From IMG/VR virus record IMGVR_UViG_3300045988_108212, positions 93,286 to 157,285 of that record: a DNA stretch of 64,000 nt; one strand, written 5' to 3'. Position 1 is the stretch's first letter; each line of letters starts with the position of its first letter. This document shows positions 1,741 through 57,914 of the stretch, one piece after another. A program made the position numbers and the translations under genes. The notes below the pieces were generated by a model that worked only from the letters and a program-made list of their open reading frames with translations, was not told the DNA's origin and did not search any database. This stretch comes from a virus.

Positions 1741-1878
1741 TGGAAACAACAGGAATCGAACCTGTGTCGGCAATTTATATGTGATGAAAATTAAATGTAA
1801 ATAAATAAAAATACTTATATGGAGGTAGAAAAATGAATGTTTATGTATTGCCTGCTCTACCAACTGAGCTATGTTTCC
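1741..1878 (-). tRNA. tRNA-like gene with a 74-nt insertion in the anticodon loop (CAU-type loop start); intron-bearing or disrupted
   Basis: The reverse complement reads GGAAACA-TA-GCTC-AGTTGGTA-GAGC-A-GGCAA-[74 nt, >80% AT]-TTGCC-GAC-ACAGG-TTCGATT-CCTGT-TGTTTCC-A. All four stems pair perfectly. Confidence 0.5.
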
Positions 1879-45471: not shown

Positions 45472-45818
45472 CAAAAAGCTAATTTTATCACACGTAAGAA
45501 ATATCGCCTATAGGGCATCAATGAAGATATTTTGGTGAGTATGGGACGCCATACAAAACACAGAGGTATAAAGCTCGTATGTTTGGAGCTTGCGTATAGA
45601 CATTTACCATAGAATTTACAGGAGTAATATAACTCTGATTTCAAATGTGTTGGACGCCTTTTAGTGCATACGCAAATTATTTGTCGGTAACTCATGTACA
45701 CATCAAGTAGTGTACACCGACTAATGGATATTTTCTCGGATAAATACCGAGCCTCCATTTATTATTCTGGCAGGTGGCGAAATGTCATCTGTACATTATA
45801 TTAAAGGAGAAAATAATT

Positions 45819-46523
45819 ATGAATACAACAGCAATTACAACATTCAATAACGAAGAATTTGGTAATGTGAGAACTCTTACAATTGATGGAGATCTTTGGT
45901 TTGTTGGCAAGGATATTACAGAATGTCTTGGATATTCTAAGGCACGAAATGCTATTTCTTCCCATGTTGATAACGAAGATAAAAAGGACGCCCCAATTCA
46001 GGGCACCCTTGGCGGAGCACAGACGATGAAGGTTGTTAACGAATCTGGCGTTTACTCTCTTATTTTTGGAAGTAAACTGGAATCCGCTAAAAAGTTCAAG
46101 AAATGGGTTACATCTGAAGTTTTACCGTCTCTTCGCAAGACTGGTACATATACAATAGTGGCGACTCAACCGAATACAACTTCTTCTATTATTGTTCAGC
46201 CAACAAGTGATATAGAGTTGCCAAAAGCAACAAATACTTGGTATCTAAAAAATAGAAAGCGTCTAAAAGAATTGTGTAATCTTATGAATATTGAGCGTAG
46301 AACTTTATATCATCTGATTCTGACAGAGATTGGAAATACGATTGACATTGAGCAATCAAAATCAATTTACACAAGAGATCACGGATTCCCACCAGAATTC
46401 ATCATGGATGTTGTTGGTTATTTCACTAAAATGCAAGAAATTGCTGATGAATATCTTGACAGATTATTAGAAAAATATGAGTCTTTGAATTCAGATAATG
46501 ATGAAGAAGATGAAAGTGTATAG
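45819..46523 (+). CDS. Bro-N domain antirepressor-like protein
   Basis: AAAGGAGAAAATAATT-ATG. FNNEEFGNVRTLTIDGDLWFVGKDITECLGYSKARNAISSHVD..ESGVYSLIFGSKLESAKKFKKWVTSEVLPSLRKTG is canonical Bro-N. Confidence 0.85.
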   Translation: MNTTAITTFNNEEFGNVRTLTIDGDLWFVGKDITECLGYSKARNAISSHVDNEDKKDAPIQGTLGGAQTMKVVNESGVYSLIFGSKLESAKKFKKWVTSEVLPSLRKTGTYTIVATQPNTTSSIIVQPTSDIELPKATNTWYLKNRKRLKELCNLMNIERRTLYHLILTEIGNTIDIEQSKSIYTRDHGFPPEFIMDVVGYFTKMQEIADEYLDRLLEKYESLNSDNDEEDESV

Positions 46524-46887
46524 TAATTTACCATATTATAAAACATTGCACCTTGCGTGCCCAACAAGAAATGAAGTGATCCGACTAAGATCGGTGGATT
46601 TAGGCTATTAGCTGATAAAAGAAAACACAAATCGTTGAAAGAGTGGTGCCGAAGTACAAGGTGGATCTCGTGTAGAAACTTGCGATACTCTAATCCAAGG
46701 TGTTTTGATCGCACAAAGAATGTGTGTCTTTTTATAGAGTGGTCTACAAAAATTACACAATTAAGTGTATGGCATATTCTGGAAATGTTATATTTCGCTT
46801 ATTGTATGGATAAGTATGCCAAAAGTGAGGAGGAATCACTCACTAAAATTTGTGTTAGTTTTGTTGAAATTAATACAGATACAGAAT

Positions 46888-46979
46888 GTACGGGTGGCAG
46901 AGCTGGTTTAATGCGCAGGATTGCTAATCCTGTATACGTACGAATATGCGTATCCTGGGGTCGTAGCCCAGTCCGTACG
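46888..46979 (+). tRNA. tRNA-Ser(GCU), type II
   Basis: Acceptor GTACGGG/TCCGTAC, a 3-bp D stem, and anticodon arm CAGGA-TTGCTAA-TCCTG. A 7-bp variable arm ATACGTA..TATGCGTAT is present. The T arm is CTGGG-GTCGTAG-CCCAG, with an atypical T loop. Confidence 0.7.
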
Positions 46980-46985
46980 CTAAAT

Positions 46986-47060
46986 CGCACCATCGTCTAA
47001 ATGGTTTTAGGACACATCCCTTTCACGGATGCAATACGAGTTCGACTCTCGTTGGTGTGA
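46986..47060 (+). tRNA. tRNA-Glu(UUC)
   Basis: Acceptor CGCACCA/TGGTGTG, D stem GTCT/GGAC, anticodon arm CATCC-CTTTCAC-GGATG and T arm ACGAG-TTCGACT-CTCGT. Confidence 0.75.
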
Positions 47061-47100
47061 TGTTTGTCCTACAATGTTCTTCGGACTTGTGGGCTAATAT

Positions 47101-47184
47101 CCCTGTTTATACTGCTAAGGAGACAGGCAAAACTGTAAATTTTGCGGCTTCGGTCACGAGTGGGTTCGATTCCCTCAACAGGGA
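47101..47184 (+). tRNA. tRNA-Tyr(GUA), type II
   Basis: Acceptor CCCTGTT/AACAGGG and anticodon arm CAAAA-CTGTAAA-TTTTG. The variable arm is GGC-TTCG-GTC and the T loop is TTCGATT. The D region is one nt longer than canonical. Confidence 0.6.
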
Positions 47185-47225
47185 TGATTAGGTTAGTAAC
47201 TATACGATAGATTAACCAAAAAATA

Positions 47226-47307
47226 TGCGAACACCCTGATGGTTGGTGGATATTGGAATGTATACCTCTTCTGATATTCTGATGGAGTTCATCACTTCAG
47301 TTCGCCC
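47226..47307 (+). pseudogene. degenerate tRNA-like element with 16-nt 'anticodon' loop
   Basis: A 6-bp acceptor GCGAAC/GTTCGC, a T-like arm TGGAG-TTCATCA-CTTCA and the stem GGAAT/ATTCT around GUAUACCUCUUCUGAU. The D arm is poor. Confidence 0.25.
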
Positions 47308-47398
47308 TAGAAAAGCAATACTTACACACTGTTGCTTTTTAGAAATATGTATTGTCTCGCCAGTGTGTACGTATGAGAGGCAAATACATATTCGTTAT

Positions 47399-47472
47399 TG
47401 ACATGTAGCTCAATTGGACAGAGCACAACGCTACGGACGTTGGTGTTGCAGGTTCGATTCCTGTCGTGTCAG
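47399..47472 (+). tRNA. tRNA-Arg(ACG)
   Basis: Acceptor TGACATG/CGTGTCA, D arm GCTC-AATTGGACA-GAGC, anticodon arm CAACG-CTACGGA-CGTTG and T arm GCAGG-TTCGATT-CCTGT. Confidence 0.85.
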
Positions 47473-47475
47473 TTT

Positions 47476-47559
47476 TCCTATATACCTCAGTTGGCAGAGG
47501 GTCATCACAGCAAGGATAACATTAGATGAAAGTCGCTGGTTCGAATCCAGCTGTAGGAA
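47476..47559 (+). tRNA. tRNA-like gene with canonical body but an 18-nt anticodon loop (identity undetermined)
   Basis: TCCTATA-TA-CCTC-AGTTGGCA-GAGG-G-TCATC-[ACAGCAAGGATAACATTA]-GATGA-AAGTC-GCTGG-TTCGAAT-CCAGC-TGTAGGA-A. Confidence 0.6.
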
Positions 47560-47565
47560 TTATAT

Positions 47566-47638
47566 TCTCGTATAGCTCAACTGGTAGAGCGGATGGCTGT
47601 TAACCATCATGTCGGAGGTTCAAATCCTTCTACGAGAG
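47566..47638 (+). tRNA. tRNA-Asn(GUU)
   Basis: Acceptor TCTCGTA/TACGAGA, D arm GCTC-AACTGGTA-GAGC, anticodon arm GATGG-CTGTTAA-CCATC and T arm GGAGG-TTCAAAT-CCTTC. Confidence 0.9.
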
Positions 47639-48228
47639 TTTGTATTTTAAACATAAGCAACTCGGTTATAAAACTCAATGCCATGAGTCCGAGAGATATT
47701 CTAGGCACATATGTCGAATTGGAGAGATACATTGTACGGATACGTTCTTTGTGTCTCTTTTTATGTCGGAGTGATCTGATATGGACAAGAGAGAAACTCT
47801 CAAGCAAATGGATATTGTGCAGCATTTTGGTCTGGTTAACGCACAGAACTTTTCGCTACAATAATAGACGCTCCTGTGGAGAATAATCCACTTCAATGCG
47901 TACTCTGGCAGGTACGTAAAAGGTGGAAAAGCCAAATAATGTAGTTTGATGTGAATCTGTTCAAAAGACAGTGTATAAGAAAAGTCGCTGGTATGTCGCT
48001 CAAGTCAGTTAAGGGTAAGTTCAAATTTATAAAAACATTCTAAAACTTAATTCTGAACGGTGGGTTGACATTGCATGTATTGATCATGTCATAGAACTGG
48101 TTTTTTAGACTTAGGTAAGAAGTTAGAGGTCGCTCCTCGAAGCTCAGACTTATCTACTATGTTGCAGAATAAACTGTTCCACAAATGACTGTAAGGTGAA
48201 GACCTGCTTTAAAATTAAAATACATTTA
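47639..48228 (+). ncRNA. candidate large structured non-coding RNA embedded in the tRNA array
   Basis: This 590-nt tRNA-to-tRNA gap has no credible ORF. GC is about 40-43% in sampled lines versus about 30% in flanking genes. It has many nested helices, such as CTCGG..CCGAG (47661/47689), AGAGATAC..GTGTCTCT (47723/47751), GTGGA-gaataa-TCCAC and GCGTAC-N8-GTACG (47875-47920). Confidence 0.4.
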
Positions 48229-48300
48229 AGGGGTATCGCCAAGTGGTAAGGCACAGCACTTTGACTGCTGTATTCACTGGTTCAAATCCAGTTATCCCTG
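48229..48300 (+). tRNA. tRNA-Gln(UUG)
   Basis: Acceptor AGGGGTA/TATCCCT, anticodon arm CAGCA-CTTTGAC-TGCTG and T arm ACTGG-TTCAAAT-CCAGT. Confidence 0.85.
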
Positions 48301-48301
48301 T

Positions 48302-48376
48302 CGCAGAATGGAGAAGTTTGGTTATCTCGTCAGGTTCATGCCCTGAAGATCGGTGGTTCAAATCCACCTTCTGCTA
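48302..48376 (+). tRNA. tRNA-Met or Ile2 (CAU)
   Basis: D stem GAGA/TCTC, anticodon arm TCAGG-TTCATGC-CCTGA and T arm GGTGG-TTCAAAT-CCACC. The acceptor is GCAGAA/TTCTGC with a C1xU72 mismatch. Confidence 0.75.
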
Positions 48377-48408
48377 TTTTTCTAGGTTTCATTTTATTTT
48401 TCATATAG

Positions 48409-48440
48409 TATCCTTTATTGGTAGGGACATTTATGTCCTT
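48409..48440 (+). other. 13-bp hairpin between tRNAs (possible processing signal)
   Basis: TATTGGTAGGGAC-ATTTAT-GTCCTTACCAATA, with no T-run. Confidence 0.6.
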
Positions 48441-48447
48441 ACCAATA

Positions 48448-48523
48448 TTGCACAGTGGAAAAGTTGGTAAATTCGCTCGTTCCATTTGGTTCTGGAGACG
48501 TAGGTTCAAATCCTACCTGTGCA
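48448..48523 (+). tRNA. tRNA-like gene with irregular anticodon arm (best fold gives 8-nt loop UUUGGUUC; UGG?)
   Basis: Perfect acceptor TGCACAG/CTGTGCA and T arm GTAGG-TTCAAAT-CCTAC, with a normal 76-nt length. The only 5-bp anticodon stem (TTCCA/TGGAG) encloses 8 nt and leaves an abnormal junction. Confidence 0.5.
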
Positions 48524-48622
48524 ATCAAAGAGCTGTTTGATTGGCAGTTCTTTTTCAACAAAGATTTTTTCTCATTGTTAGCATATAGTGGATGGATATT
48601 AATTCATCTACTACTCCTTTCT

Positions 48623-48692
48623 GGCTTGGTAGTTCATTGGTAGAACGCAATACTTTTAATATTGTGAAGCGGTTCAAATCCGTTCCAAGCCC
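48623..48692 (+). tRNA. tRNA-Lys(UUU)
   Basis: Acceptor GGCTTGG/CCAAGCC, D arm GTTC-ATTGGTA-GAAC, anticodon arm CAATA-CTTTTAA-TATTG and T arm AGCGG-TTCAAAT-CCGTT. The variable loop is short. Confidence 0.8.
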
Positions 48693-48940: not shown

Positions 48941-48949
48941 GTGTTCTCT

Positions 48950-50380
48950 ATGAAGAAAAAACAAAAGAATATCAGAGTATCATTTGTGGACGAACCTGCT
49001 GCTATGGATGTTACTGGTTCTATGGTTTATGTAAAAACAGATACTCACAACATTTTGATTGATGCTGGCTTACATCAGTCAAATAGTAAATACGATGATT
49101 TTCTTGTAAATAAGAGAAGATTCAAAGAATTTAAGCCAAAAGACATTGATTATATCTTTATTTCCCATCTCCATGCGGATCACGTATTTTTAAGCCCAAG
49201 ACTATATAAAGAGGGATGTTCTGCAAAAATGATTGTTGCACAAGACAATTATCGAATTATGCATCGAATGGCTGAAGATTCTGCTTATATTATTGAAAGA
49301 GATATAGAATTAATTAACAATCAACATGGGAAGAATTATGACCCATTGTATACTATTGAAGATGTAGAACGTACAATGAATTATGTTTCTGAATATCCTG
49401 TGATGGAAAAGATTGTTATTGATGATAATTTATCATTTATGCTTATTCCAAACGGACATTTGCTTGGTAGTGTGCAAATTTTATTGTATCTCAAACAGAA
49501 CAATGTTGAAAAGACTTTGTTGTTTACAGGAGATATTGGAAATTCTAAAGTACATAATTATTACGTTAATAAGTTTACTCCTGTTAATCATGCAGATTTA
49601 GTCATTGGAGAATCAACTTATGGAGATCGCCCAGATTTAAAAACTGGACAAAAAGAAAGAAATAATGATATCGAAAAGTTATTTTCTATTATCGCACAAC
49701 AGGTATGCGAAATGCATGGACAGGTAATTATACCAACTTTCGCAAATCACAGACTCCAATTTCTTACAACAATGATTTATCAGGTCATGAAAGATTATGA
49801 TTTTCCTTATAAAGTATACATTGATACACCGTTAGGGATTGATATTTTTAATGAATATCGCAAAATCTTATCGGGAGATGAACTAGAATTGTTTGATAAG
49901 GTCTTAAATTGGGATAACTTAGTGTTTGTGCGTGATGCAGAATCCAGTAAAGCACTGGTACATAGTAATGAACCATGTGTAATATTATCTACATCTGGGA
50001 TGTGTAATAATGGTAGAATTAGACACCATTTGAAAAAAGCAGTTTCAAATCCTAACGCTACTGTTCTATTTGTAGGATTCAGTACGCCAGGAAGTTTAGC
50101 TGCATTACTTAAAGACAAAAATGTTAAATCTATCTCTATAGATAATAAACAATATACTTGTAGATGTGCAAGTTTCTCACTCAAATCTCTTAGTGGACAT
50201 GCTCCATTCTGCCAACTTCTCGATTACTACTCTTCTATTAACACAAATCGAATTGTATTACATCATGGATCAGAAAAAGCAAAGTTAACATTAAAAGAGA
50301 AATTAACTTCTGAACTTGAAAAGAAATGCAAAAGTACACGAGTTATTATTGCAAATTCAAGTTTGAAAATTTCATTATAG
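48950..50380 (+). CDS. MBL-fold beta-CASP ribonuclease (RNase J / CPSF73-like)
   Basis: ILIDAG, HLHADH, NGHLLGS and TGDIG are MBL motifs 1-4. ESTYG, LSGHA and LHHGSE are beta-CASP motifs A-C. Confidence 0.8.
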   Translation: MKKKQKNIRVSFVDEPAAMDVTGSMVYVKTDTHNILIDAGLHQSNSKYDDFLVNKRRFKEFKPKDIDYIFISHLHADHVFLSPRLYKEGCSAKMIVAQDNYRIMHRMAEDSAYIIERDIELINNQHGKNYDPLYTIEDVERTMNYVSEYPVMEKIVIDDNLSFMLIPNGHLLGSVQILLYLKQNNVEKTLLFTGDIGNSKVHNYYVNKFTPVNHADLVIGESTYGDRPDLKTGQKERNNDIEKLFSIIAQQVCEMHGQVIIPTFANHRLQFLTTMIYQVMKDYDFPYKVYIDTPLGIDIFNEYRKILSGDELELFDKVLNWDNLVFVRDAESSKALVHSNEPCVILSTSGMCNNGRIRHHLKKAVSNPNATVLFVGFSTPGSLAALLKDKNVKSISIDNKQYTCRCASFSLKSLSGHAPFCQLLDYYSSINTNRIVLHHGSEKAKLTLKEKLTSELEKKCKSTRVIIANSSLKISL

Positions 50381-50389
50381 AAAGGACTG

Positions 50390-50992
50390 TTGAATATAGA
50401 ATTCGAACTTCCAATTAAAGATTTACTAAAACAATTTGGCGGTGGACTGCCAGATGTAGTAGATTATCAGTATTATGTAAATTTACAGCAGCGCAGAATT
50501 ATTGTAAATGAAGCCATTTGCGATACCATCCTTGAAAGTGCTGTTCTCCCACTTATTGAGATGGATAATGATGGTTCTGGAGAACCTATTACAATTATTC
50601 TTGATTCACTTGGTGGCGATGTATATAGAGGATTTAATCTTGTTGATGTTATTGAAAAGATTAAAACTCCACTTACGATTCACATTATGAGTATGGCAGC
50701 CAGTATGGGACTACATATTGCTATGGCAGGGCATAATAATCCAAATGCAAAAACCGTATGTCATCCATTTAGTGTAGGTTTACTTCATAGTGGATCAGAA
50801 TCTGTTAGCGGAACAGCTCATGCTGTAAGAGATTTATTTAATTTTTCACAGAAATACGAAGAGAAAATTAAACAGTATGTACTTTCACATTCTAATATTA
50901 ATGAAGAAATGTACGAAAAAGTATATCGTCAGGAATTGTGGCTTGATGCAGGTGAAATGCTTCGCCTTGGAATTGTAGACGAAATCATTTAA
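50390..50992 (+). CDS. ClpP-family (S14) serine protease
   Basis: ILDSLGGDVYRGFNLVDVI..IMSMAASMGLHIAMAG..LLHSGS..ELWLDAGEMLRLGIVDEI parallels ClpP I.SPGG..G..IyD / G.AASMG / HQP / D. The TTG start is uncertain. Confidence 0.8.
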   Translation: MNIEFELPIKDLLKQFGGGLPDVVDYQYYVNLQQRRIIVNEAICDTILESAVLPLIEMDNDGSGEPITIILDSLGGDVYRGFNLVDVIEKIKTPLTIHIMSMAASMGLHIAMAGHNNPNAKTVCHPFSVGLLHSGSESVSGTAHAVRDLFNFSQKYEEKIKQYVLSHSNINEEMYEKVYRQELWLDAGEMLRLGIVDEII

Positions 50993-51341: not shown

Positions 51342-52562
51342 ATCAGTATTAATTTTGAACAAGAATTAGCAAAAATCGGATTAACTCCAGAAACATATGA
51401 GGCTGTCTGTGCAGATATTGATTCAAAACTTGACGGTGTAGTTGATATCGACTGGCAGGAAATTAAAGAAAAATATCATGTACAATGTGCAAGCGATACA
51501 ATTCGCAAGTCCTCTTCTACTCCATTTGGTGGTAGATTCAGAGATGCTTATTTTCGCAGCAAGCAAAAATCTGGTAACGATGAAAAATCTGAAGATCAGT
51601 TATTATATGAAAAAATTCGTAAGGAACGACAGAAATTACAGACAGTTAATTTAGAGAGAAATCGTATTTCTCGCCAAGAAAGTCGTTTTGAGCTGTTCAA
51701 TGAATATGTGGCTGAAGCAATTCAGATGCTACCAAACCCAGACTTCAAACCTCTGAGAGTTGAAGATAAATCTAAAGGATATGTGCTTTCTATTGCAGAT
51801 ATTCATTATAATGCAGTATTTAAGAGTGTTAACAACGAATACTCTCCAGAAATTTGCATTGAAAGATTTCAAAAATTATTATCCAAGACCATTGTGCTGA
51901 TACATAGGCTTGGCATTTCTAAACTCAAAGTCGTCACATTAGGTGATGACATTCAGGGTATCTTACGTCTTACTGACGTTAAGCTCAACGACTCTGCCGT
52001 TGTTAAGGCAGTTGTTGATATCTCAAAAATCATTTCACATTTCTTAAATGAATTATCTAAATATGTTGAAATTGAATATTATTGCGTAGGTCGAAGCAAC
52101 CACAGCCAAACACGACCTATAGGAACAAGAGCTTCTGAATTATGTGCGGAAGACTTTGAATATATTATTGGAAATTATATCAATGAATGTTTGGCAAACA
52201 ATGATCGTGTTGAAGTACATCTTGATCTGGAATCTGATTGTATTCACGTTCCTGTCGCTGGCTTTAATATTGTTGCAATGCATGGGCATACCTTAAGAGG
52301 AATTGATAGCGCCATTCAAAATATGGAGTCTATCTATAACGAAGATATTGATTTCTTGTTAGTTGGTCATTACCATGGAATGCTTGAAAAATCTCTCAGC
52401 GAAGGTATTACATGCGATAAGGAAATTTTAGTGTGCCCAAGTTTTGTAGGTAGCGATCCTTATGCAGACAGTATTTTTAAAGGGTCAAAGAGTGCTTGCA
52501 AACTATTTGAGTTCACAGAACATGATGGGCATACAGCATCGTTCAAGATGCAATTAAATTAA
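51342..52562 (+). CDS. metallophosphoesterase with ~120-aa N-terminal extension; non-canonical start (ATC 51342 / ATT 51348?)
   Basis: Motifs SIADIHYN, LGDDIQG, GRSNHS, AMHGH and VGHYH are present. The frame is open from 51336 with a protein-like sequence, but the first ATG/GTG/TTG in frame is the GTG at 51708. GGAG lies at 51329. Confidence 0.6.
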   Translation: MSINFEQELAKIGLTPETYEAVCADIDSKLDGVVDIDWQEIKEKYHVQCASDTIRKSSSTPFGGRFRDAYFRSKQKSGNDEKSEDQLLYEKIRKERQKLQTVNLERNRISRQESRFELFNEYVAEAIQMLPNPDFKPLRVEDKSKGYVLSIADIHYNAVFKSVNNEYSPEICIERFQKLLSKTIVLIHRLGISKLKVVTLGDDIQGILRLTDVKLNDSAVVKAVVDISKIISHFLNELSKYVEIEYYCVGRSNHSQTRPIGTRASELCAEDFEYIIGNYINECLANNDRVEVHLDLESDCIHVPVAGFNIVAMHGHTLRGIDSAIQNMESIYNEDIDFLLVGHYHGMLEKSLSEGITCDKEILVCPSFVGSDPYADSIFKGSKSACKLFEFTEHDGHTASFKMQLN

Positions 52563-54552: not shown

Positions 54553-56298
54553 ATGGATATTTTAGATATAGACTTCGATGAAGTGAACAAACGTATGGCT
54601 CAAAGAGCCAGTGAATTGGGAGTTCAAGATATAGATCCTTCAGAAGATACCATAGATTACGAAGCATGGACAAAATTCTTTTCTTATTATCGGTATTACA
54701 TCGATGATTTTGCAACAGATATTTTAGGGATTGAACTCTTTCCTTTTCAAAGAGTTATATTGAGAGCAATGGCAAGAGGGCAAATGTCAGTATTGATTGC
54801 ATGTCGTGGACTCGGTAAGTCATGGATCGTAGCCGTCTTCTATATTTGCATCTCGATATTATATCCAAATGTCAAATGTGGAATTGCTTCAGGAAGTAAC
54901 CAACAGGCTAGAAACGTAATTATTCAGAAAATTAAGGGTGAGTTAATCAAGAATGGAACTATCGCAAAAGAGATAGTTATGCCAATTCATACTTCTCCTG
55001 ATGATTGTTATGTTGAATTTAATGGTGGCGGTGAAATTCGTGCCATTACTGTTGCACAAGATCGTGGTGGAGAATCTGCTCGTTCCTGGCGTTTTAATTA
55101 TTTATTGATTGATGAAGCTCGTCTGGTTAAAGATGATATCATTGAAACAATTTTGATTCCTATGACAAAAACCAAACGTCAAAATGCTTTAAAATGGCAC
55201 AAAAATGAAAAGGGTAAAGTTATTTTTATCTCTTCTGCTTATCTGAAAACAAGCGGATTATACAAGAGATTTAAATATCATTTTGAGCAAATGTGCTCTG
55301 GGAACAAGAGGTATGTTGCAATTTGTTTCCCTTATCAAGTTGGTGTACAAGCTGGTCTTTTTGATATGGAAGACATTGAGCAAGAGTTATCTAAACCTTC
55401 TATGACAAAAGACAAATTCGCTTATGAATATGAGGGAATTTTCGTTGGTTCCAGCGGAGAAAGTTATTACCCATATGAACTTACAATGCCTTGTAGAAAA
55501 CTTGAATATGGCGAATCAGATCAACCTCGAAAATCTCAATCTATCTATGTCATCACCCATGACGTAGCTGTATCTAATGAAAAGAATTCGGATAACGCAT
55601 GTACTCATGTTATCAAACTGAAAATGAGACCAAATGGTACTTATACAAAATCTGTCGTGTATACAAAAGTCATGAATGGTATACCTTTGAATAAACAAAG
55701 AGATTTCTTAAGAGAACTCATTCATATACATTTCCCTAACACAAAGAAACTGGTTATAGATGATAACGGAGTTGGTGCAGGTTTACCAACAATGTTTTAT
55801 GAAAGTTGGGAATATACAGATCCTAAAACGAAAAACACAGTAGAATATCCGCCATTGATAAAAGACGATGATGAAGATGGATTTCTACTTGATAACGCAG
55901 TTCCATTAATTCGTGGTGTTCATGCGTCAAATGAATTTCATAAAACATTCTATCCTTACATGAAATCATGCTTCGAGGATAGATCTCTTGAATTACTATC
56001 AACCTCTGAAGAAGTTGACTCTCTGTATAAGAACGGAGAGATTACTGCGGAACAATACGCACAGCATGTAGAGCATGACATCTTGCAGAGTGAATTAAGC
56101 AATATTAAGATGGATTATTCTGAACATGGAAATGTTCAATATGTTCGTATTGTCAAGGGGCAAAAGAGAGATAGAGCTACTTCTCTTTGTTATGGATTAT
56201 CTGTTATTTATGAATGGGAAGAAGAAAATAGATACACATTATTTAACAATAATAAAAGTCATGGTTATGACTTACTTAATGAATATACATATGTTTAA
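54553..56298 (+). CDS. terL: terminase large subunit
   Basis: Walker A IACRGLGKSW, Walker B LLIDEARLV and a C-terminal nuclease-like half. The gene order terS-terL-portal is consistent. Confidence 0.9.
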   Translation: MDILDIDFDEVNKRMAQRASELGVQDIDPSEDTIDYEAWTKFFSYYRYYIDDFATDILGIELFPFQRVILRAMARGQMSVLIACRGLGKSWIVAVFYICISILYPNVKCGIASGSNQQARNVIIQKIKGELIKNGTIAKEIVMPIHTSPDDCYVEFNGGGEIRAITVAQDRGGESARSWRFNYLLIDEARLVKDDIIETILIPMTKTKRQNALKWHKNEKGKVIFISSAYLKTSGLYKRFKYHFEQMCSGNKRYVAICFPYQVGVQAGLFDMEDIEQELSKPSMTKDKFAYEYEGIFVGSSGESYYPYELTMPCRKLEYGESDQPRKSQSIYVITHDVAVSNEKNSDNACTHVIKLKMRPNGTYTKSVVYTKVMNGIPLNKQRDFLRELIHIHFPNTKKLVIDDNGVGAGLPTMFYESWEYTDPKTKNTVEYPPLIKDDDEDGFLLDNAVPLIRGVHASNEFHKTFYPYMKSCFEDRSLELLSTSEEVDSLYKNGEITAEQYAQHVEHDILQSELSNIKMDYSEHGNVQYVRIVKGQKRDRATSLCYGLSVIYEWEEENRYTLFNNNKSHGYDLLNEYTYV

Positions 56299-56321: not shown

Positions 56322-57914
56322 GTGGCAACAAAAAATAAAACAGATGCACAAACACAATCATATGTTACAGAATTTATTCAGGCATATAATAGTCAAAGTG
56401 CAGCTGGACAATCATTCTTCTTGTCTCCTCAATTGCTGAATAGTACATTGAAGAATGTCAATATGAAAGGCGCAATTTTTCCAAGAGAAAAGATTGAAAG
56501 AATGGTTTTAGCACCTCATCAATTCGAACAAGAATTGCGACAGCTTTCATATTCATATTACAATTCGATTTCTATATACAGACATCTCATAGACTTTACG
56601 TCTTCTATATTAGATTTTGATTGGGAACCAATTCCTTACACATTGGACGGAAAACCAATCACGGCATCTGATTATCATTCAAAAAGATTTCAAAAAGATT
56701 ATAAAGTTGTAACTAATTTTTTTAATCGCTTTAATGTTAAAAGAGAATTTAATAAAGTTATGTTCAATATTTCTAATTATGATACATACTATACATCACT
56801 TCGTGAATTCGATGATCATGCATATTTACAGGAACTGCCTGCTGAATATTGTATGATTGACGCAGATTCATATCTTGGATACCTCTTTTCTTTTAACTTA
56901 TCTTATTTTGTTCAAAGCGGTGTCGATATTGATGGATATGCCCCATGCTTTAAAGCTATGTTTAATAATGCTTTACAATCATCTGAAAATACTTATGGGT
57001 CAAATTTAGCGAAACATAATGGACGATGGGTATATTATCAGCAAATGCATCCTGATGATGCTTGGGTATTTAAATACAATAACAATTTTGCAGGATCAGT
57101 TCCACCAGTATTAGACATGTTTTTAGATTATTCCAAATTAAGTAAGTTCAAAGATCTTGAGGAAGCCAAAAAAGAACTTGAGGCGTATAAGGTCATCTTT
57201 GCTTCTGTCCCACGCCTACAAAATGGAAAAATGGGAAACAAAGTGGATGATTTTGCGATCAGCGCTGAAGAACTCGGTAAGTTTATTGCAACTGTAAAAG
57301 AAAGTCTTGGTTCTAATCTTGGATCAAAATCTGCCGTAGATTTTAAAGCTGCACCATTGGAGAATTTTAAAATGTTCGACTTCTCCCCTTCTGCTTCAGA
57401 GAAAAACTTATTAGAAACAGAGATGAATAACATGGTTCGTGAATCTGGTATGGCAGATGCAATTCTACAAGGCGGTAACAACGTATCGTCTATCAATTTA
57501 TATAAACAGACAATCTCTGCAAAAATGGAAAAATTATATCCTCAATTTGCATCATTCTGTGAATATCATATCAATAAAAACACAGATAAATATAAATTCA
57601 AAATTAAATTTGTTGGAACAATGTTTGACCGTGAAGATCGTAGAAAGGCAGCTAATGAAGATATGGAAAGAGGAATTATCACCCCTGCTATATTCTCTTC
57701 AAGAGGTATTCAAATTACCGATGCAGCTAATACGATGAATTTTATGCATGGACTTGGATTTCCTCAAAGCTTTACGCCTATTCAAACAGCATCTACGATG
57801 TCAAGCGAAGATAAGAAATCTTCTGGTCGAACAAAATTATCAGATGATCAAATCACCGATTCTGGAGAACAGACAAGAAATATCGGTGCAAATGAAGATA
57901 AAAAGGAGGCGTAA
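56322..57914 (+). CDS. portal protein
   Basis: 530 aa, directly after terL. GTG start after GGAGGTG. Called from size and position. Confidence 0.7.
   Translation: MATKNKTDAQTQSYVTEFIQAYNSQSAAGQSFFLSPQLLNSTLKNVNMKGAIFPREKIERMVLAPHQFEQELRQLSYSYYNSISIYRHLIDFTSSILDFDWEPIPYTLDGKPITASDYHSKRFQKDYKVVTNFFNRFNVKREFNKVMFNISNYDTYYTSLREFDDHAYLQELPAEYCMIDADSYLGYLFSFNLSYFVQSGVDIDGYAPCFKAMFNNALQSSENTYGSNLAKHNGRWVYYQQMHPDDAWVFKYNNNFAGSVPPVLDMFLDYSKLSKFKDLEEAKKELEAYKVIFASVPRLQNGKMGNKVDDFAISAEELGKFIATVKESLGSNLGSKSAVDFKAAPLENFKMFDFSPSASEKNLLETEMNNMVRESGMADAILQGGNNVSSINLYKQTISAKMEKLYPQFASFCEYHINKNTDKYKFKIKFVGTMFDREDRRKAANEDMERGIITPAIFSSRGIQITDAANTMNFMHGLGFPQSFTPIQTASTMSSEDKKSSGRTKLSDDQITDSGEQTRNIGANEDKKEA

Follow-up and report, generated by a model that had tools for sequence, protein, structure and literature searches.

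The question raised by this locus is what occupies the roughly 590 nt that separate two consecutive tRNA genes in the middle of a phage tRNA array. The window, by which we mean the whole stretch of 64,000 nucleotides that was analyzed (positions 93,286 to 157,285 of the IMG/VR record IMGVR_UViG_3300045988_108212), contains a tRNA array at 46888..48692 on the plus strand, which was delimited using ARAGORN and the Rfam tRNA model. The array comprises the ten tRNAs Ser, Glu, Tyr, Arg, Leu, Asn, Gln, Met, Trp, and Lys, all on the plus strand and presumed to constitute one co-transcription unit, and it is interrupted between Asn and Gln. The upstream neighbor of the interval is tRNA-Asn(gtt) (47566..47638, +; Rfam tRNA, 69.9 bits), whose discriminator G47638 is followed by UUUG, the CCA end not being encoded, and the downstream neighbor is tRNA-Gln(ttg) (48229..48300, +; identified by ARAGORN; Rfam, 64.3 bits). 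The end of tRNA-Asn was placed at 47638 by Rfam and at 47639 by ARAGORN, which leaves a gap of 589-590 nt before the start of tRNA-Gln at 48229; the coordinates 47639-48228 proposed in the first-pass annotation of this DNA were thus exact.

Other figures of that annotation had to be revised. The rest of the array had been described as having spacers of 1-40 nt, while the actual spacers were 4, 38, 212, 1, 4, 589 (the interval itself), 0, 70, and 96 nt. The GC enrichment of the interval was real, but the figure of 40-43% was not reproduced, as the measured GC content was 36.9%, compared with 33.8% for the whole window and 31.5-35.6% for the neighboring genes. The open reading frames overlapping the gap encode 97 aa (+, 47593-47886), 86 aa (-), and 72 aa (-). 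The 97-aa frame begins within tRNA-Asn and none of the three matched a PHROG family at E ≤ 0.01, in agreement with the earlier view that the interval holds no plausible ORF and that the hits partly translate tRNA sequence. The 212-nt stretch of the array without a tRNA (47186-47397) contained a long hairpin at ~47343-47393 and folded weakly beyond chance (z = -2.1), and a search for a second RNA in it returned no matching Rfam family. A promoter and terminator scan of the locus yielded nothing convincing, with promoter-like sites being rarer than in shuffled sequences.

When the window was scanned against Rfam 15, the ROOL model RF03087 matched positions 47637-48225 on the plus strand with 308.8 bits, compared with a gathering score of 99.1 (E = 4e-70). 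The match covered model positions 1-574 of 574 with no truncation, and the 589 matched nucleotides are close to the family mean of 581 nt (PMC5737381). ROOL RNAs were described by Weinberg et al. (2017; PMC5737381) and Cousin et al. (2017). The conserved ROOL motifs AAUAGACGC, GAAUAAUCC, UCUGAA, GGUAAGAAG, GGUCGCUCC, and GCUCAGACUUAUC were all found in the window. Most of the viral ROOLs that were sampled scored higher than the window ROOL (mostly 360-405 bits). Accordingly, it is close to certain that the 590-nt inter-tRNA interval at 47639..48228 (+) is a ROOL RNA gene, as the first-pass annotation had suggested from size and context, and the locus is an ordinary, complete representative of an already described RNA family.

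The other large RNAs that had been named as candidates were not recovered. GOLLD (RF02032), HEARO, and OLE did not reach the gathering score anywhere in the window, and a permissive Rfam scan of 47500-48400 produced no match to them at E ≤ 1. In this segment, the gathering score was reached by ROOL and tRNA only, the remaining matches at E ≤ 1 were weak hits to YrlA and Plastid-ycf2, both overlying tRNAs, and no other large-RNA family appeared at this threshold. GOLLD is similar to ROOL in that it is a large, ornate phage or prophage RNA which resides in tRNA arrays and assembles into cages made of RNA only (PMC12286853), but its sequence and fold are unrelated. Moreover, the GOLLD linker can contain tRNAs, whereas the tRNAs at the window ROOL lie outside the closing helix P1, on its flanks. 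One of the viral loci, L081, carried both RNAs on the minus strand of the same tRNA array, with ROOL at 972-1561 (327.7 bits) and GOLLD at 1950-2417 (173 bits), ~390 nt apart.

The interval is more stably folded than expected from its composition. Its minimum free energy was -154.6 kcal/mol, compared with -135.4 ± 6.3 kcal/mol for 100 dinucleotide shuffles (z = -3.06), and none of the 100 shuffles folded as stably. The consensus structure of RF03087 was then projected onto the window, where both residues were present for 155 of the 159 consensus pairs. Standard base pairs were formed by 124 of the 155 projected pairs. The other 31 were mainly located where model positions 171-190 pair with 515-537 and where 461-470 pair with 499-507, and at least one block of four non-standard pairs was a register error, since CAUG can pair with CAUG. 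The closing helix P1 consists of ten contiguous Watson-Crick pairs between its 5′ strand UGUAUUUUAA (47641..47650, +) and its 3′ strand UUAAAAUACA (48215..48224, +), and it appeared in the minimum free energy fold as well as in the covariance-model alignment.

Six helices had been drawn by eye in the first-pass annotation, five of which coincided with ROOL consensus helices. These were CTCGG/CCGAG (47661-65 with 47689-93), the helix at 47723/47751 (47723-38 with 47743-58, including the inner GTACG/CGT), GCGTAC-N8-GTACG (47897-903 with 47912-18), the GAGG/CCTC hairpin (48126-29 with 48135-38), and the pairing of TCCAC with GGTGGA, which had been offered as an alternative and is the consensus one (TCCAC(T) 47887-92 with (A)GGTGGA 47922-27). 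The sixth, a local GTGGA-gaataa-TCCAC hairpin, is absent from the consensus. The core at 47863..47889 (+), which runs from AAUAGACGC through CUCC-UGU-GGAG (47871-47881) to GAAUAAUCC, was invariant in 35 of 35 aligned ROOLs, although 34 of these were IMG/VR sequences that had been fetched by the same core motif. The family also has a variable, unstructured linker, which corresponds here to an AU-rich stretch at 48004..48059 (+) that has a GC content of 26.8% and no consensus pairs. Its counterpart in the solved ROOL cages is disordered and situated within the cavity (PMC12286853).

Relatives of this RNA were collected from IMG/VR using the core AATAGACGC-N8-16-GAATAATCC, which was found at no fewer than 117 loci. 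Among the matches listed, nhmmer distinguished at least 6 ROOLs identical to that of the window, at least 10 that were ~93% identical, and at least one that was 88% identical, and the remaining loci were distant. The listed loci were dereplicated at 97% identity, and the resulting 35 representatives, one of which is the window's own sequence, were scanned with the model. All 35 (34 others and the window sequence) contained full-length ROOL matches with scores of 230-405 bits.

The 35 sequences were aligned using MAFFT, and the structure of the window ROOL was projected onto the alignment. A standard pair was formed in 66.2% of the cells, compared with 56.2% in shuffles, and 111 pairs were changed on both sides, compared with 85.2 in shuffles. 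The covariation score was 0.312, while it was 0.140 in shuffles and at most 0.178 when the structure was slid along the alignment. The observed values were attained by none of 500 shuffles. Nine helices were 82-100% paired with many compensatory changes, and the weaker helices coincided with visibly shifted parts of the alignment, which is based on sequence only and therefore under-counts several helices. A total of 69 columns were invariant across the 35 ROOLs. Relative to the ~93% group, the window ROOL differed mainly within the linker at 48016-48058, where most substitutions clustered together with a 23-nt insertion that the group carries after 48035, and the 88% relative L032 exhibited six fully compensatory pair changes. 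Covariation in viral relatives thus lends strong support to the predicted multi-junction structure of this ROOL. Together with the model match, this positive result makes the fallback of a new tRNA-associated large RNA, which had been kept in reserve, unnecessary.

Neither megablast nor blastn of the ROOL and its flanks matched the ROOL in GenBank phages, where the only hits of this query were to an anti-repressor gene of Streptococcus prophages with 76-79% identity. The exact ROOL 37-mer was found in none of the GTDB genomes, and the 27-mer core retrieved no more than two ROOLs, both distant, one from a Clostridia MAG and the other from a MAG labeled Rickettsiales.

The window has the phage and tRNA context in which ROOLs occur, with the ten-tRNA array, a Bro-N/anti-repressor gene (45774-46523), a large terminase gene (54553-56298), and a portal gene (56322-57914). 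A 129-aa 3D-domain protein (PF06725; 45082-45471, +) is encoded upstream of the array, and it was kept in the clade of the window and in the 93% ROOL group with 77-99% amino acid identity. Directly after the array follows a gene for a 479-aa beta-CASP nuclease (48941-50380, +), a metallo-beta-lactamase/beta-CASP/RMMBL protein of the RNase J/CPSF73 type, and then genes for a ClpP-like protease (50390-50992) and an exonuclease (51708-52562). A functional link between the beta-CASP nuclease and ROOL was considered and rejected as a general feature, as the gene was restricted to the closest clade, with neither the 93% group nor any of the distant ROOL loci carrying it. At 1741-1878 (-), a tRNA-like gene (Rfam tRNA, 46.4 bits) had 81 nt in place of the 15-position anticodon arm. 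ARAGORN in intron mode interpreted it as a 72-nt tRNA with a 67-nt AT-rich intron and a doubtful anticodon call, so that this gene may be an interrupted or intron-carrying tRNA.

Related IMG/VR contigs were 100-165 kb in length, and the portal protein was 27-29% identical to portals of ~100-kb Enterocloster phages. Because there was no GTDB 37-mer match, the 27-mer matches were mixed, and the portal identity was only 27-29%, the host is given as no more than probably a member of the Bacillota. Taken as a whole, the explanation that this is a ROOL gene located within the tRNA array of a large tailed phage, probably infecting Bacillota, is very likely to be correct. Other small RNAs were observed near ROOL in related contigs, including a skipping-rope RNA 30 nt upstream of ROOL, RAGATH-21, type II hammerhead ribozymes, and a phage tmRNA; the sites were L108 3596-3677, L050 7836-7912, L035 3622-3698, L003 2234-2634, L116 3872-3941, and L008 3098-3399.

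The block 46524-48377 (~1.85 kb), which includes the upstream spacer, six tRNAs, the 212-nt gap, ROOL, and tRNA-Gln/Met, was 100% identical in 6-8 related IMG/VR contigs among the matches listed, while the flanking protein genes were 84-97% identical. Since the identity extends to non-genic spacers, it is to be attributed to a cassette that these contigs share and not to selection acting on ROOL itself, and the block has the appearance of an RNA-gene cassette that was exchanged recently. The conservation accordingly loses weight as proof of selection on ROOL, given that the intergenic DNA is equally 100% identical. In more distant phages, the ROOL was 93-94% identical and the neighboring 3D-domain gene 71-75% identical.

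ROOL RNAs self-assemble without protein into a hollow cage ~28 nm across, which is an octamer in env-120 and E. faecalis ROOL and a hexamer in L. salivarius ROOL (PMC12286853, PMC12990946, PMC12515178). The cryo-EM structure of env-120 ROOL is a D4 octamer (PMC12286853), and for the E. faecalis ROOL, monomers and tetramers are described alongside the octamer (PMC12990946; Ling et al. as summarized in PMC12515178). The residues that bridge the subunits in env-120 were taken from the tables of the structure supplement. Because the env-120 sequence text in the supplement has 650 instead of 659 nt, with ~9 nt lost, they were mapped onto the window by motif and not by residue number. The long-range loop pairings B4 and B1, once predicted as pseudoknots, are now known as kissing contacts between subunits.

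In the window, B4 would join the loop UGGC (47906..47909, +) with the junction GCCA (47931..47934, +) through the pairs U47906-A47934, G47907-C47933, G47908-C47932, and C47909-G47931. Seven distinct complementary B4 motif pairs were found among the relatives, including UGAGA:UCUCA, UGGCA:UGCCA, UUAGCA:UGCUAA, UGGA:UCCA, and UUGAC:GUCAA, and B4 loops had a mean score of 4.9 with their own partner, compared with 3.65 with partners from sequences carrying a different motif. The 5′ partner of B1 is the L2 hairpin loop AUGCCA (47678..47683, +), a motif match to the env-120 loop A38-C41, and its 3′ partner is the post-linker GGUGG (48059..48063, +). These can pair in two registers, UGCC with GGUG or CCAU with GUGG, so that 3-4 pairs form between the L2 loop and the post-linker GGUG(G). 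The corresponding pairs in relatives were UGCCAU:AUGGUG, CGUCAU:AUGACG, UUAGUCA:UGACUGG, and UUUUCA:UGAAAG. The nearest relative, L047, has a B1 of 6 bp (UGCCAU with AUGGUG), and owing to a U-to-C change at 48058, B1 is one pair weaker in the window than in this relative. B4 and B1 covary across the relatives, a signal that by its nature does not distinguish pairing within a molecule from pairing between molecules.

The third contact, B6, corresponds to G565:C566′ in the env-120 structure supplement. In the window, its counterpart is the L18 hairpin GAGG-UCGCU-CCUC (48126..48138, +), in which the GC step at 48132-48133 would be the self-pairing contact between half-shells; its UCGC loop hardly varies across the alignment, and UCGCU agrees with the family consensus. 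The window and env-120 ROOLs have in common the family helices and the invariant AAUAGACGC...GAAUAAUCC core, as well as the B4, B1, and B6 complementarities, the variable linker, and the phage and tRNA-array context that characterize the family. They are, however, only ~43% identical in a rough alignment, and the B4 motif is UGGC:GCCA in the window and GGUA:UACC in env-120. Compared with the family and env-120, the window ROOL has extra nucleotides at 47709-47722 and a longer hairpin at 47723-47758. Conversely, its apical stem is limited to 4 bp and a 3-nt loop, while that of env-120 is longer and GAAA-capped. Given this short apical hairpin, CUCC-UGU-GGAG, the B3 "daisy-chain" contact of env-120 is probably absent here.

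The same form of apical hairpin, CUCC-NGU-GGAG, with a 4-bp stem and a 3-nt loop, was found in the ROOL of E. faecalis LR962503.1, which was retrieved by BLAST and may not be the sequence whose structure was solved. This ROOL lies on an unannotated entry labeled as an E. faecalis plasmid (L120 704-1282, LR962503.1 16291-16869), and is a full-length match of 579 nt with 268.9 bits. The E. faecalis and L. salivarius ROOLs reside on a chromosome or megaplasmid, unlike the window ROOL, which belongs to a large phage, and the hosts differ as well. According to published work, the apical stem varies among ROOLs and affects the number of subunits, but whether a given ROOL is a hexamer or an octamer was not deducible from the apical stem sequence. 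The window ROOL retains the sequence requirements of the cage contacts B1, B4, and B6, and judging from these motifs it is likely to assemble into a cage. The RNA would fold into a flat ROOL monomer and self-assemble without protein into a hollow cage of ~28 nm, in which B1 and B4 would join the subunits within a half-shell and B6 would join the half-shells. The cage would most likely be an octamer, with the AU-rich linker inside.

The ends of the RNA are closely tied to its flanking tRNAs. P1 starts 2 nt past tRNA-Asn (G47638) and ends 4 nt ahead of tRNA-Gln. Across 36 dereplicated loci from the matches listed, the start of the ROOL match coincided with or overlapped the 3′ end of a tRNA on the same strand in 28, so that the closing helix lies within a few nucleotides of a tRNA in about three quarters of the phage loci, and a downstream tRNA was located within 10 nt of ROOL in 14. 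The median start of P1 over these loci was 1 nt after the upstream tRNA, and its end lay 2-9 nt before the next tRNA in 16 of the 36. Two of the 36 had no same-strand upstream tRNA in the flank that was examined, and L108, L008, and L081 were more than 200 nt away from a tRNA.

From this geometry, at the window as well as across the 36 loci, we infer co-transcription followed by release through RNase Z and RNase P. RNase Z cuts CCA-less tRNA precursors after the discriminator in Bacillota. The array would be transcribed as a single precursor including ROOL, in which an RNase Z cut after the tRNA-Asn discriminator G47638 would generate the 5′ end of ROOL and an RNase P cut just ahead of 48229, where tRNA-Gln begins, its 3′ end. 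The released RNA would be 590 nt long, with its ends joined by P1. That ROOL is freed from the tRNA transcript by tRNA-processing enzymes is fairly probable on these grounds, if slightly less so than its assembly into a cage. A comparable logic, tRNA punctuation, operates in mitochondrial polycistronic transcripts and bacterial rRNA-tRNA operons, where RNase P and RNase Z set the ends of non-tRNA products. The window ROOL is likewise bounded directly by tRNAs, at distances of 2 nt and 4 nt, and the upstream tRNA abuts in the 28 loci mentioned above. This is a likeness of mechanism and not of family membership, and the literature consulted, to March 2026, reports no cleavage of a ROOL. As Ling et al. 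are reported in PMC12515178, a tRNA precursor fused to the 3′ end of ROOL still allows the octamer to form, with the tRNA displayed outside, an account which fits processing that precedes assembly as well as processing that follows it.

Several other explanations of the locus were weighed against a functional, released ROOL. The 97-, 86-, and 72-aa frames could be taken to encode a small protein, but the longest starts in tRNA-Asn, none has a PHROG match, variation among the relatives tracks base-pairing rather than codons, and the covariance-model match accounts for the whole interval, which leaves this reading a negligible probability. The same holds for a different large RNA, whether GOLLD, HEARO, OLE, a group I or II intron, or a new tRNA-linked RNA: GOLLD does occur in the same genomic context, and L081 carries it together with ROOL, yet on 47500-48400 gathering scores were reached by ROOL and tRNA alone. 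A decaying, non-functional relic carried along with the tRNA cassette would fit a score below that of most viral ROOLs, the 31 non-standard pairs among 155, the weakened B1, and an identity that reaches neighboring spacers and hence does not prove selection on ROOL. However, the whole model is covered without truncation, the invariant motifs are all present, B4 and B6 are intact, and the E. faecalis ROOL scores lower still at 268.9 bits. In addition, the ROOL remains 93-94% identical where the 3D-domain gene is only 71-75% identical, with the changes located in the linker, and L032 differs by six compensatory double changes. We consequently regard a relic as very unlikely.

Somewhat less improbable, though still unlikely, is that ROOL acts in cis without being released, remaining attached to the flanking tRNAs and controlling their maturation or storage. 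Its P1 lies only 1-4 nt from the tRNAs, and so bulky a fold at this distance could hinder or time their processing. The assembly of ROOL bearing a 3′ tRNA precursor, as relayed in PMC12515178, is consistent with this reading, as is the "inhibited storage" idea put forward for tRNAs embedded in GOLLD (PMC12990946). Against it, some ROOLs have no adjacent tRNA (the two of 36 without one upstream on the same strand, and the three loci more than 200 nt away), the L. salivarius ROOL is reported to accumulate to about the level of 16S rRNA (PMC12286853), and the tRNAs are placed outside P1 and not within the ROOL fold. A ROOL released from the tRNA transcript is the reading carried forward here.

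No function had been demonstrated for any ROOL in the literature consulted, to March 2026 (PMC12990946), and the authors of the env-120 structure proposed tRNAs, ribosomal particles, or other molecules as the contents of the cage (PMC12286853). At this locus the cage would act during infection. In the role that we favor, itself doubtful, the cage would hold or shield translation-related RNA (such as tRNAs or tRNA precursors) or ribosomal particles and would be tied to the tRNA supply of the phage, because the tRNA-punctuated layout would couple the production of ROOL to that of the phage tRNAs. More speculative again is the stronger form, in which ROOL is tRNA-punctuated as a rule, host RNase Z and RNase P make its subunits in fixed proportion to the phage tRNAs, and the cage acts on the phage tRNA supply.

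Alone, the locus matters little, since ROOL already has a curated Rfam entry and several solved structures, and the locus would be annotated by a routine Rfam scan. Its value lies in being a complete, clean example in a large phage outside the GenBank phage records that were searched, with ends that are apparently set by tRNAs. The reach and exactness of the tRNA abutment are mildly new, as is having natural variants at hand, and the identical, 93%, and 88% ROOL copies in related viral contigs form a series that can be used for tests. The tRNA-abutting layout offers a concrete route for the manufacture of ROOL, and it could help in choosing native ends when the RNA is studied structurally and functionally. 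If the tRNA-punctuated reading were true, the cage would hold, shield, or present tRNAs or their precursors, for example, against host tRNA-cleaving defenses, and ROOL would not be an unrelated passenger of tRNA islands.
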